Position numbers and translations under genes: made by a program. Source: Candidatus Dormiibacterota bacterium (lineage in GTDB: Bacteria; Chloroflexota; Dormibacteria; CF-121). From it: a stretch of 64,000 bases of DNA. Of this stretch, positions 5,548 through 10,026 are shown piece by piece; the first letter of the stretch is position 1, and the number at the start of each line of letters is the position of its first letter. The DNA is taken from assembly GCA_036732165.1 (NCBI GenBank), contig DAINCX010000003.1, forward strand, positions 16,685-80,684. Direction: 5' to 3'. Under the pieces are notes generated by a model. That model was not told the origin of the DNA. It ran no database searches and saw only the letters and a program-made list of their open reading frames with translations.

Positions 5548-5595
5548 ACTCCATATGTTGGGGTCGGGGCCGGCTGGACACCATACATTTTGTTG
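5548..5595. promoter_or_regulatory. tandem NrdR-like boxes
   Basis: ACTCCATATGTTGGGG (5548-5563) and ACCATACATTTTGTTG (5580-5595), 32 bp apart, resembling acaCwAtATaTwGtgt, upstream of nrdJ. Confidence 0.65.
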
Positions 5596-5603
5596 TAAAC
5601 TAG

Positions 5604-5632
5604 TTGACAGGCCTAATCCTAAGTCATACGAT
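5604..5632 (+). promoter_or_regulatory. sigma70-type promoter of nrdJ
   Basis: TTGACA-N17-TACGAT. Confidence 0.75.
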
Positions 5633-5668
5633 GTGGGGCGCTTCACCCCACCCACGGAGGTCTTATTC

Positions 5669-8469
<2,801 letters not shown>

Positions 8470-8479
<10 letters not shown>

Positions 8480-8673
8480 ACACAGCAAGAAAGGAAGAGG
8501 CCAACGCGGTCTCTTCCTCATCGGTCGGCCAGGCCGTCGTCGCGCATCGGCGGTGGGCGGAAGCGCCTCAGTGTCCTTGCGGTGGTCTGACGCATTGGGA
8601 CGGAAGAAAATTCCGGTGCCGCGGTTGCGGCCTCTACCACGAGACCTGTTGTGATGGTGGCCGCTGCGGCTGA
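8470..8673 (+). CDS. putative small Cys-rich zinc-ribbon protein (start uncertain)
   Basis: CPCGG...CRGCG...CCDGGRCG; nearest canonical start is GTG 8470 overlapping the nrdJ stop. Confidence 0.5.
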
Positions 8674-8887
8674 CCGCGCGAAAATTTTCCAGAACCAACC
8701 CCTGACGACCTCTATCGAAACGTTGGCGGTCGAAAAACATTCGGGCACTCCATGCACAAAACGCTCATTCATGCTATGGTCGGGATTAATGAGCGCCGAG
8801 CCGCGCTCTGATCATCGCGTTGGTCAGGGCGGGGAAAACGAGAAGGGCAACACTCACAAGGGGTCCAGGTCCACGTCGATCAGCTCG

Positions 8888-9220
8888 ATGAGGGACGGAC
8901 AACACATCGCGGTTGGTTCTTTCCCGAGTCGCGCCGATGACGTCAACGGTGGCGGCCAACCGCGGCGGACCTTCATGAGTGTCGACACACAGCCAACGCG
9001 GTCCGCGCGGTTGCGGTCCATCGGCGCTCGGGCTCATCACGGCGGAGGGTTGATCGCGGACGATCGCCGATCCCCTCGACGCGTGTCCCTCCTTTTGCTT
9101 CCGGTATCCGGCCGCGCCGGCGCCCGCGCGTCCACGGCTCACGTGGCGCTCACGCGCGTTCGGCGGCGGCGCATTGCGTCAAGCGGCCGACCGGGAGAGT
9201 CTTGCTAAGAAGGAGGTGAC
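8888..9220. ncRNA. candidate structured ncRNA or long structured 5' leader
   Basis: Three consecutive co-linear stem systems (8888-9038, 9047-9078, 9085-9220) identified by eye; no recognised Rfam family. Confidence 0.4.
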
Positions 9221-9225
9221 CTGGA

Positions 9226-9297
9226 ATGGCCGCAAAAAAGAAGTCCGCAGGCGGAAAGAAGAAGTCGTCCGCGAAGAAGTCGTCGAAGAAGAAGTAG
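9226..9297 (+). CDS. 23-aa Lys-rich micro-protein MAAKKKSAGGKKKSSAKKSSKKK
   Basis: Full SD AAGGAGGTGA at 9210-9219, ATG 9226, biased codons (mostly AAG, TCG), 12-bp hairpin downstream. Confidence 0.75.
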   Translation: MAAKKKSAGGKKKSSAKKSSKKK

Positions 9298-9321
9298 TCA
9301 GGTTCTAATCCTGACTTCTCG

Positions 9322-9349
9322 ACAGCCGGCGTCATCGGACGCCGGCTGT
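9322..9349 (+). terminator. terminator-like hairpin
   Basis: ACAGCCGGCGTC-atcg-GACGCCGGCTGT perfect 12-bp stem; weak U-tract. Confidence 0.65.
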
Positions 9350-9363
9350 GCCATTCTTACGGG

Positions 9364-9777
9364 ATGGTCGAGCTCGAGCGAGCCCGGGCGTTTCTCATTC
9401 AGCGCCACAACGGCATCCTGGCCAGCATCAAGCGCAATGGCCGGCCGCAGCTTTCCAATGTGCTGTACCTGCTCGACGACGATGGCCGGATCAAGGTGTC
9501 GGTGACCCAGACTCGGGCCAAGACCCATAACCTCCGCCGGGACCCTCGGGCCACCCTTCACGTTCAGGGCCGTGATTGGTACGAGTTCCTGGTCGTCGAC
9601 GGGGTCACGGCGTTGATTGAGGGGCCCGAGGTCGGGCAGGCGCTACGGGACGTCTATCGAAAAATCCGCGGTGAACACCCGAACTGGGCCGAATACGATG
9701 CCGCCATGGTCAACGACCAGCGGTTGCTGCTTTCGATCTCGATTGACTACGCCTACGGCATGATTCGGTCGGACTGA
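9364..9777 (+). CDS. PPOX-class (FMN/F420 split-barrel) oxidoreductase
   Basis: LASIKRNGRPQLSNV, RAKTHNLRRDPRATLHV. Confidence 0.85.
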   Translation: MVELERARAFLIQRHNGILASIKRNGRPQLSNVLYLLDDDGRIKVSVTQTRAKTHNLRRDPRATLHVQGRDWYEFLVVDGVTALIEGPEVGQALRDVYRKIRGEHPNWAEYDAAMVNDQRLLLSISIDYAYGMIRSD

Positions 9778-9789
9778 GCCGGGCCCTGA

Positions 9790-10026
9790 TCAGCGGACCG
9801 CCAGGCAGGTCACGGTTTTGAACACGCCGTCGATTTTCTGAATGTTTTCCACGATCACCGAGCCGATCCCCGCCACGTCGGGCGCCTCCACCTGGGCGAT
9901 GACGTCGTACTCCCCGGTAATGGCATCGGCCAGCTGGATTCCCTTGACGCCCTGGAGGGATTTCGCCACGTCGATCGCCTTCCCCGCCGACGCATTGATC
10001 AAGACATAGGCTCGCATTTCGGGCAC
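9790..10026 (-). CDS. Lrp/AsnC ligand-binding-domain-only protein
   Basis: RAYVLIN, ITGEYDVIAQVE, IQKIDGVFKTVTC; SD AGGAGG. Confidence 0.85.
   Translation of the reverse strand: MPEMRAYVLINASAGKAIDVAKSLQGVKGIQLADAITGEYDVIAQVEAPDVAGIGSVIVENIQKIDGVFKTVTCLAVR

Follow-up and report, generated by a model that had tools for sequence, protein, structure and literature searches.

Is a reading frame of 23 codons, nearly half of them for lysine, a real gene, and why would the ribosome-binding site of such a gene lie buried in its own mRNA? These questions are raised by a micro-open reading frame (micro-ORF) at 9226-9297 of the window, i.e., the whole stretch of 64,000 nucleotides (nt) of Candidatus Dormiibacterota DNA that was analysed. 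An earlier note on this DNA had described here a Lys-rich ORF of 23 amino acids (aa), a Shine-Dalgarno (SD) sequence six nt before its ATG, an anti-SD tract at the foot of a long stem, and a 12-bp hairpin downstream; the ORF, the SD, the anti-SD and every individual stem were found as described. Our analysis points to a micro-gene that stands alone and is tightly throttled, its product being a polycation that binds polyanions and is possibly associated with the ribosome. We give this reading about even weight, its function being read from composition and architecture. The unit comprises the following parts.

9085-9096, + strand: anti-SD pyrimidine tract GTCCCTCCTTTT, which pairs with 9208-9220 in the minimum free energy (MFE) fold
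9097-9199, + strand: leader core hairpin, in which four or five GC-rich helices stack into a rod and the internal loops are conserved
9200-9225, + strand: single-stranded, conserved linker TCTTGCTAAG, the SD AAGGAGGTGA at 9210-9219 and a 6-nt spacer
9226-9297, + strand: micro-ORF, ATG at 9226, 23 codons, TAG at 9295-9297, product MAAKKKSAGGKKKSSAKKSSKKK
9296-9316, + strand: hairpin 1, AGTCAGG, a loop and CCTGACT, containing the stop codon
9322-9360, + strand: hairpin 2, a 12-bp GC stem (9322-9333/9338-9349) with a tetraloop, followed by GCCATTCTTAC

Relatives were gathered by a scan for the 3' neighbour of the micro-ORF, which encodes an F420-dependent PPOX-class oxidoreductase (9364-9777; TIGR03618 in NCBIfam). 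With one genome per species, the scan gave 53 loci, and the 28 closest (59-81% identity in PPOX) form the main comparison set; these are labelled nearly all as Candidatus Dormiibacterota, Dormibacter or Chloroflexi CF_ bins. Since the loci were fetched through PPOX, they were not selected on the micro-ORF. The conservation of ORF and SD that the earlier note looked for in relatives is evident: the micro-ORF is present in 28/28 of these genomes, 62-80 nt 5' of PPOX, and the SD is invariant in all 53 distinct leaders. The micro-ORF locus also occurs on at least about 60 metagenome contigs of Candidatus Dormibacterota, and the exact PPOX protein of the window is found on permafrost and soil metagenome contigs and in metagenome-assembled genomes (MAGs).

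The coding test used 14 distinct nucleotide versions of the ORF, taken from the window and loci L001-L038. Third positions vary in 11 of 22 codons versus 3 of 44 first and second positions (Fisher p = 1.3e-4), and the third-position changes are 100% synonymous. Lys codons alternate between AAA and AAG only, and the codons for Ala, Gly and Ser use up to four alternatives. There are two length differences, both of whole codons; the homologous peptides have 23, 22 or 21 residues (MAAKKKSAGGKKKSSAKKSSKKK, VAAKKKAGGKKKSSAKKSSKKK and MAAKKKAGGKKKAAKKSSKKK, rarely the form VPAKKK...KKR). ATG and GTG starts interchange among the homologues, as do TAG and TAA stops, and the three replacements seen are conservative or peripheral (Ala2Pro, Ser/Ala14 and Lys23Arg). 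This codon-position pattern, together with the conserved frame, start and stop, marks a sequence that is translated and held by purifying selection. As judged from DNA comparison, the micro-ORF is thus a translated gene, and the selection on its peptide is strong.

The peptide contains 11 Lys, the rest being Met, Ala, Gly and Ser, and carries a net charge of about +11; Met and Ala apart, no residue is hydrophobic. Its lysine fraction is 0.48, and the next values in the window are 0.2-0.31 (ORFs of 12-25 codons). The product is predicted to be an intrinsically disordered polycation in which four Lys clusters are split by Ala, Gly or Ser. Gene callers miss the micro-ORF on the public contigs and call a 61-aa ORF, MTPAVEKSGLEPDYFFFDDFFADDFFF..., on the opposite strand (9150-9335, - strand). 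This ORF is a spurious mirror image of the Lys codons, and its calling is a systematic mis-annotation in these MAGs. Overlapping long ORFs (8651-9208, + strand; 8786-9142 and 9150-9335, - strand) were considered as the cause of the conservation and rejected, as their frames are lost in relatives.

How is this gene translated? The 10-nt SD AAGGAGGTGA is perfect in 53/53 distinct leaders, and we take it to be complementary to the 16S rRNA 3' end (the canonical sequence, not the host's own 16S). In the fold, the outermost helix of the leader joins GUCCCUCCUUUU (9085-9096) to the SD region (9208-9220). The tract drifts in sequence among the homologues (GUCCCUCCUUUU, CUCUCUCCACUUU, UUCUCUUUUUCCUCC and others), yet it stays 87% pyrimidine. 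The predicted SD/tract pairing probability exceeds 0.8 in 42 of 50 distinct leaders (mean 0.87), and SD pairing falls to 0.47 when the tract is replaced by other upstream sequence. On these folding models, the conserved capacity of the leader is that a perfect 10-nt SD is buried in a helix closed by an upstream pyrimidine tract. The translational gating by SD occlusion suggested in the earlier note is supported by this mean pairing across the 50 leaders and by the same topology in an unrelated leader, that of the MATKKK family described below. The unpaired probability of GGAG, predicted from 4 to 50 °C, is 0.000 for the window leader and 0.003-0.037 for leaders of the 21-aa type. An SD predicted to be closed to at least 50 °C means a clamp far too stable for a thermometer.

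Between tract and SD, the MFE fold of 9085-9222 is one long irregular hairpin containing all the stems described before: CUUCCGGU/ACCGGGAG (9098-9105 with 9190-9197), CGGCC/GGCCG, GCGCCG/CGGCGC, CGCGCGU/ACGCGCG and CCACG/CGUGG. Its energy is -79.8 kcal/mol versus -61.9 ± 4.2 kcal/mol for dinucleotide shuffles (z = -4.31), and 0 of 200 shuffles fold as well, a comparison that the proposed structure withstands. The reverse strand of the leader folds worse (-66.7, z = -1.85). The whole segment 9080-9300 has a z of just -1.04; therefore, the excess stability lies in the leader hairpin and not in the ORF.

The core is also conserved as a sequence. When the 53 distinct leaders were aligned over 32 consensus pairs, 26 pairs were invariant, five had one-sided changes that preserve pairing through G-U and fit an RNA of the + strand only, and one was broken, in two sequences. 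Core identity is 0.83-0.88 versus 0.45-0.52 at the four-fold sites of the adjacent PPOX gene; in genome pairs whose PPOX proteins are 50-75% identical, four-fold sites are 45-48% and the leader core 83-85% identical, gaps included. Core identity so far above that of near-saturated four-fold sites indicates strong sequence-level constraint. The only variable parts are the apical loop (9137-9141) and one 3' internal loop (9173-9184), and in the L038 lineage the apical stem is extended. From these alignments, the core appears to be conserved far beyond the needs of a mere SD clamp. It occurs once in the window and once per locus, with no related dispersed repeat, and an origin from a dispersed repeat or a miniature inverted-repeat transposable element is thus ruled out.

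The 3' part of the unit is structured as well. Hairpin 1 starts inside or just after the stop codon and takes up one to three of its bases, so that a terminating ribosome must melt it. It reaches -4 kcal/mol or better in 49 of 50 distinct spacers between stop and hairpin 2, the fiftieth being at -3.4 kcal/mol, and its stems differ by lineage (UCAGG/CCUGA, UUAGCUU/AAGCUGA, UAAGAG/CUCUUA and UAGAGAG/CUCUCUA; mean z -3.4). Hairpin 2 (-24.5 kcal/mol), the downstream 12-bp hairpin already noticed earlier, is kept in 57/57 distinct downstream sequences, with a UUCG loop in most, and it carries compensatory and wobble changes (GUC/GAC versus GCC/GGC; U-A, U-G and C-G at one pair). The tail that follows is conserved, U-poor and of the CAUU(U/C) type. 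Hairpin 2 is probably the intrinsic terminator of the micro-gene, with a weak U-tract. A helix between the start region and the 3' tail (9222-9229 with 9350-9357) appears in the window MFE; a 5'-3' locking of the mRNA through this helix was discarded, as the pairing is kept in only 3 of 57 homologues.

The 5' boundary is marked by a further hairpin.

9044-9077, + strand: upstream hairpin, GGAGGG ... CCCCTC, immediately before the pyrimidine tract; its interior varies

Its outer arms (GAGGG/CCCCTC) are conserved and its interior differs between lineages; ATTTTTCTCTC comes after it in the 21-aa lineage. Two roles are considered for this hairpin: it may terminate the small-ORF unit upstream, or it may form the 5' stem of the mRNA of the micro-gene. 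No sigma-70-like promoter site was found on either strand of 8400-9900, nor was a conserved -35/-10 seen on inspection of the upstream sequences of the relatives. As a separate observation, GGAGGG (9044-9049) can pair in the window lineage either with CCCCTC (9072-9077) or with the anti-SD CCCTCC (9087-9092). The latter pairing would free the SD, and this alternative is unavailable in the 21-aa lineage.

Are there comparable genes elsewhere? A metagenome scan with a degenerate DNA pattern for KK(x)AGGKKKx(1-2)AKK matched at least 120 contigs, at least about 60 of them carrying the Dormibacteria locus. The other matches listed included long histone-H1-like proteins and several micro-ORF families with good SDs, as follows.

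At least 21 contigs (L075, L083, L089, L124, L160 etc.; e.g., L083:471-539), 52-56% GC: K-rich family MATKKK(K)AAKKKAGGKKKAAKKR
L099:184-246 and 430-486, with an equivalent in L123 (- strand), 68% GC: K-rich tandem pair MAKKAAKKAAGGKKKAAKKR and MAKKAAKGGKKKAA(A/T)KKR
Among the matches listed: further K-rich micro-ORF families MATKKGGKKKAAKKAGGKKKAAKKAAKKR and MPKKKAGGKKKAAKKH

These families have near-consensus promoters (TTGACA-N17-TATATA or CATAAT), clear intrinsic terminators and varying neighbours, and each member of the tandem pair has its own strong intrinsic terminator. The MATKKK family (MATKKKAAKKKAGGKKKAAKKR), with consensus TTGACA-N17-TATATA promoters and terminators of its own, often lies near trmL-like and thiE genes. 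Its leader contains a conserved CCACAAGA/UCUUGUGG hairpin flanked by anti-SD and SD. Among four leaders folded (MATKKK and a 29-aa relative, MATKKG...), the order anti-SD, hairpin, SD was found in three, all of them MATKKK; in these, a 5' UUUUCUC tract pairs with the SD, the hairpin is unlike the Dormibacteria core, and z ranges from -1.8 to -4.0. The identical MATKKK peptide occurs in at least 21 contigs and is encoded by nine nucleotide versions. In its codons outside the search pattern (2-9 and 22), third positions vary at 6 of 9 and first and second positions at none; codons inside the pattern were excluded as evidence, which would have been circular. The search pattern does not impose the gene architecture that the K-rich families share. 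As micro-genes of this kind, with an equal leader topology, recur in unrelated soil bacteria, the element is more than a single-lineage oddity.

The databases hold no counterpart of the element. Rfam 15 gave no match in the whole window at gathering thresholds and, at E ≤ 10 in 8450-9450, one chance microRNA match to hairpin 2 (16 bits versus a gathering threshold of 63). The micro-peptide matched no Pfam-A family at E ≤ 10, no NCBIfam family at E ≤ 0.1 and no PDB chain at E ≤ 10, the sensitivity of such searches being limited for short low-complexity queries. The exact peptide and seven related ones are absent from a collection of 15 billion proteins, and a literature search for the peptide strings and keywords found nothing relevant.

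Comparison with known systems is more instructive. The tiny basic proteins bS22 and bL37 of mycobacteria, missed by annotation and discovered through structures, proved to be ribosomal (PMC6133939). Together with bTHX of Thermus and the eukaryotic eL41, they have 24-33 residues and are strongly basic, lineage-restricted and missed by gene callers; the micro-peptide is alike in size and charge. In many ribosomal-protein mRNAs, autoregulation works through a structured leader that conceals the SD, as the leader of the micro-gene is predicted to do. In contrast to the Arg-rich, non-repetitive sequences of these four proteins, the micro-peptide consists of Lys, Ala, Gly and Ser, shows no sequence similarity to them and is encoded outside a ribosomal-protein operon. 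In AlgP and PhaF, it is the K/A-rich, disordered, H1-like tails that bind DNA and organise polyphosphate granules (PMC9239181). With their KPAA repeats, they share K, A and S/G composition and predicted disorder with the micro-peptide. Histone-H1-like Lys/Ala-rich tails are also present at the C-termini of mycobacterial HupB and chlamydial Hc1/Hc2. However, tails of the AlgP/PhaF type have 100-200 residues and are fused to a folded domain, whereas the micro-peptide is a whole product of 21-23 residues without Pro and, unlike H1-like tails, has a dedicated, highly structured mRNA. The likenesses inferred in the earlier note, to histone H1 and to ribosome-associated peptides, are ones of composition only; a long tandem K/A/P repeat on a folded domain is not found in a product of this length.

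Among RNA elements, SD-sequestering leaders (those of ribosomal proteins, translational riboswitches, ROSE/fourU elements and type I toxins) likewise place an upstream anti-SD across a structured domain. The leader of the micro-gene differs from them in having no Rfam match, a clamp that is too stable and no evident ligand-type multi-helix junction. Dual-function small RNAs (RNAIII/delta-haemolysin, SgrS/SgrT and SR1/SR1P) similarly combine a short structured RNA with a micro-ORF of 26-43 codons, but in our case no pairing target or seed was identified, and the conserved RNA is coupled to its own SD. Attenuation leaders (his, trp, thr, leu and phe) share a short ORF rich in one amino acid, hairpins and a gene on the same strand. 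Unlike those leaders, the micro-gene has no predicted terminator/antiterminator pair, lies before a gene unrelated to lysine, keeps its non-Lys residues and has its own SD occluded.

We propose that the unit of about 275 nt, from the anti-SD tract to the terminator-like hairpin, would be self-contained. Its mRNA would be translationally closed by default, and the peptide would be made at a low or conditional rate. The SD would be opened by an event in trans (a helicase, S1-type standby binding, 5' processing or a bound factor) and not by heat. Once made, the peptide may bind a polyanion, be it rRNA or the ribosome, other RNA, DNA or polyphosphate. The near-invariant hairpin would be more than a clamp and is probably the binding site of a factor that sets the balance between open and closed states; this factor could be the peptide itself, giving negative feedback as in ribosomal-protein leaders. 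A bolder generalisation, which we consider unlikely, is that K/A/G peptides of about 20 residues are hidden, widespread gene-encoded polycations of soil bacteria (Dormibacterota and at least two or three other lineages). These would be ribosomally made counter-ions for RNA, ribosomes, DNA or polyphosphate, with their level set by feedback of the peptide or its polyanion partner on its own anti-SD/hairpin/SD leader, a protein analogue of polyamine homeostasis.

Several results weigh against a throttled, stand-alone polycation gene. SD pairing is kept at 0.88 when the tract is shuffled, which makes the anti-SD signal compositional. In the 21-aa lineage, the tract adjoins the conserved upstream hairpin and could double as the U-tract of a terminator, and an mRNA starting downstream of the tract would leave the SD open. 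The covariation check proposed in the earlier note succeeded for hairpin 2, with its compensatory changes, and failed for the core, where 0 of 32 pairs show a compensatory double change in the 53 leaders; the core fold therefore rests on energy, wobble-only variation and strand asymmetry. Compared with the 16S, 23S and 5S rRNA of E. coli, the core hairpin scores within the shuffle null, a weak test because this is not the host's rRNA. The resemblance between the K-rich families is partly imposed by the search pattern, and convergence is possible. PPOX lies on the same strand, 62-97 nt after the micro-ORF, in every Dormibacteria locus (about 98), and such a constant neighbour leaves room for a cis-regulatory role.

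Other readings of the locus must be set beside the polycation gene. By analogy with bS22 and bL37, the product could be a lineage-specific ribosomal or stably ribosome-associated micro-protein whose leader mimics an rRNA site and mediates autogenous repression. We regard this as improbable. Size, charge and annotation gap fit that precedent (PMC6133939); the very strong purifying selection on the peptide and an SD buried as in many ribosomal-protein leaders agree with it, as do the relatives in other phyla with near-consensus promoters, and a leader conserved in sequence and not just in structure is what a mimic of an invariant rRNA site would be expected to show. However, tiny ribosomal proteins typically contain Arg, aromatic and hydrophobic residues, whereas this peptide is made of K, A, G and S only and has a Gly-Gly break. 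Its gene lies outside the ribosomal-protein operons, it has no PDB sequence match, and the comparison with E. coli rRNA, weak as it is for another host, gives the mimic no support. The fixed position of PPOX at +62 to +97 on the same strand suggests instead a leader peptide or upstream ORF for PPOX, in which ribosomes moving over 11 Lys codons, or terminating within the stop hairpin, would determine how far hairpin 2 is read through or PPOX is translated. PPOX lacks a well-spaced SD, only about 15 nt separate its start codon from the end of hairpin 2, hairpin 1 always holds the stop codon, and the U-tract after hairpin 2 is weak, all of which would suit such coupling. We nevertheless find it decidedly unlikely. 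Hairpin 2 stayed fully paired under three ribosome-position constraints with the covered stretches forced open, and no alternative structure competing for its arms was found; thus, no attenuator-type switch is predicted. Furthermore, residues other than Lys are conserved, as are the distances between the Lys clusters, neither of which is needed for counting codons, PPOX has no link to lysine metabolism, and the K-rich micro-genes of other bacteria have strong terminators of their own, tandem copies and varying neighbours.

The locus might also encode first of all a structured regulatory RNA, either a dual-function small RNA or a cis-element of the region downstream of nrdJ (the upstream flanking gene), with the peptide secondary. 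The core is more conserved than the synonymous sites of the ORF or any neighbouring coding sequence, the hairpin-bounded unit of about 275 nt has the size of known dual-function small RNAs, and third positions are less free in the micro-ORF (11/22) than in the Cys-rich small ORF behind nrdJ (31/33). Yet the coding pattern is clear, start, stop and frame are conserved, and the perfect SD is invariant; the hairpin is found a single time at each locus and has no second copy in the window, no complementary target was identified, and Rfam has no matching family. We see poor prospects for this reading. Sequestration of the SD by long-range pairing is what had suggested to the earlier note a design like that of type I toxins or thermometers, and over-produced polycationic peptides can be toxic, according to a preprint (bioRxiv 10.1101/2023.03.09.531820). 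Both likenesses break down, and a toxin-like module or a thermometer seems hardly credible here. The peptide has no hydrophobic or transmembrane segment, and the 5'-3' lock, a typical trait of type I toxin mRNAs, is kept in 3/57. No promoter-like site was found on either strand of 8400-9900 and hence no antisense signal, although this does not prove the absence of an antisense RNA. Unlike mobile toxin-antitoxin loci, this one is present as a single copy, keeps strict synteny and is conserved by vertical descent, and the SD stays closed from 4 to 50 °C, with an unpaired probability of 0.00 in the window and at most 0.04 in the 21-aa type.

Abundant as they are, and dominant in some soils of cold deserts and permafrost, Dormibacterota have barely been cultured. 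In this lineage, the micro-gene is more constrained than its enzyme-coding neighbours, and its leader is among the most conserved non-coding elements of the locus. If the peptide is ribosomal, it would be an extra ribosome component for a phylum-level lineage. If it is a general polycation, it would point to a mechanism, so far unrecognised, by which slow-growing bacteria exposed to desiccation and cold manage the charge of nucleic acids or polyphosphate, and its leader would be a new translational switch that responds to a protein or another factor.

The surroundings of the micro-gene are constant. About 98 Dormibacteria-type loci share one gene order: nrdJ, a Cys-rich small ORF, a conserved block, the micro-ORF, PPOX, an AsnC-type gene on the - strand, and tdh. 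In the window, nrdJ encodes a B12-dependent ribonucleotide reductase (5555-8479), and beyond PPOX lie the gene for a stand-alone AsnC-type ligand-binding domain protein (9790-10026, - strand), then tdh and kbl. The PPOX start follows hairpin 2 by about 14-15 nt (9350-9366), with just GGG or GGGC before the ATG and no well-spaced SD. Translation of PPOX may start on an mRNA with no leader or a very short one, or may rely on read-through out of the micro-gene.

Two further conserved segments lie between nrdJ and the micro-gene. The Cys-rich small ORF just 3' of nrdJ (8572-8673, + strand) has an unclear start, its frame being open back to 8395; in most relatives, an ATG lies some 15 codons ahead of the first Cys, where the window lineage has none. 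It ends in ...CPCGGxTxWDGRKFRCRGCGLYYETCCDGGRC(P/G)*, with eight Cys and the look of a zinc ribbon, and its only Pfam match is a sub-threshold one to Zn_ribbon_IS1595 (E = 0.098). Among relatives, 31 of 33 third positions vary versus 11 of 66 first and second positions (p = 3.5e-14). The second block (about 8761-8880, + strand), between this ORF and the micro-gene, has no Pfam match and is a candidate small ORF, promoter region or RNA element. In one frame, it reads (F)MLWSxLMSAEPRSDRRVDQGE(D/E)LKKGNT(Q/H)..., and the length and stop of that frame further downstream vary among relatives.

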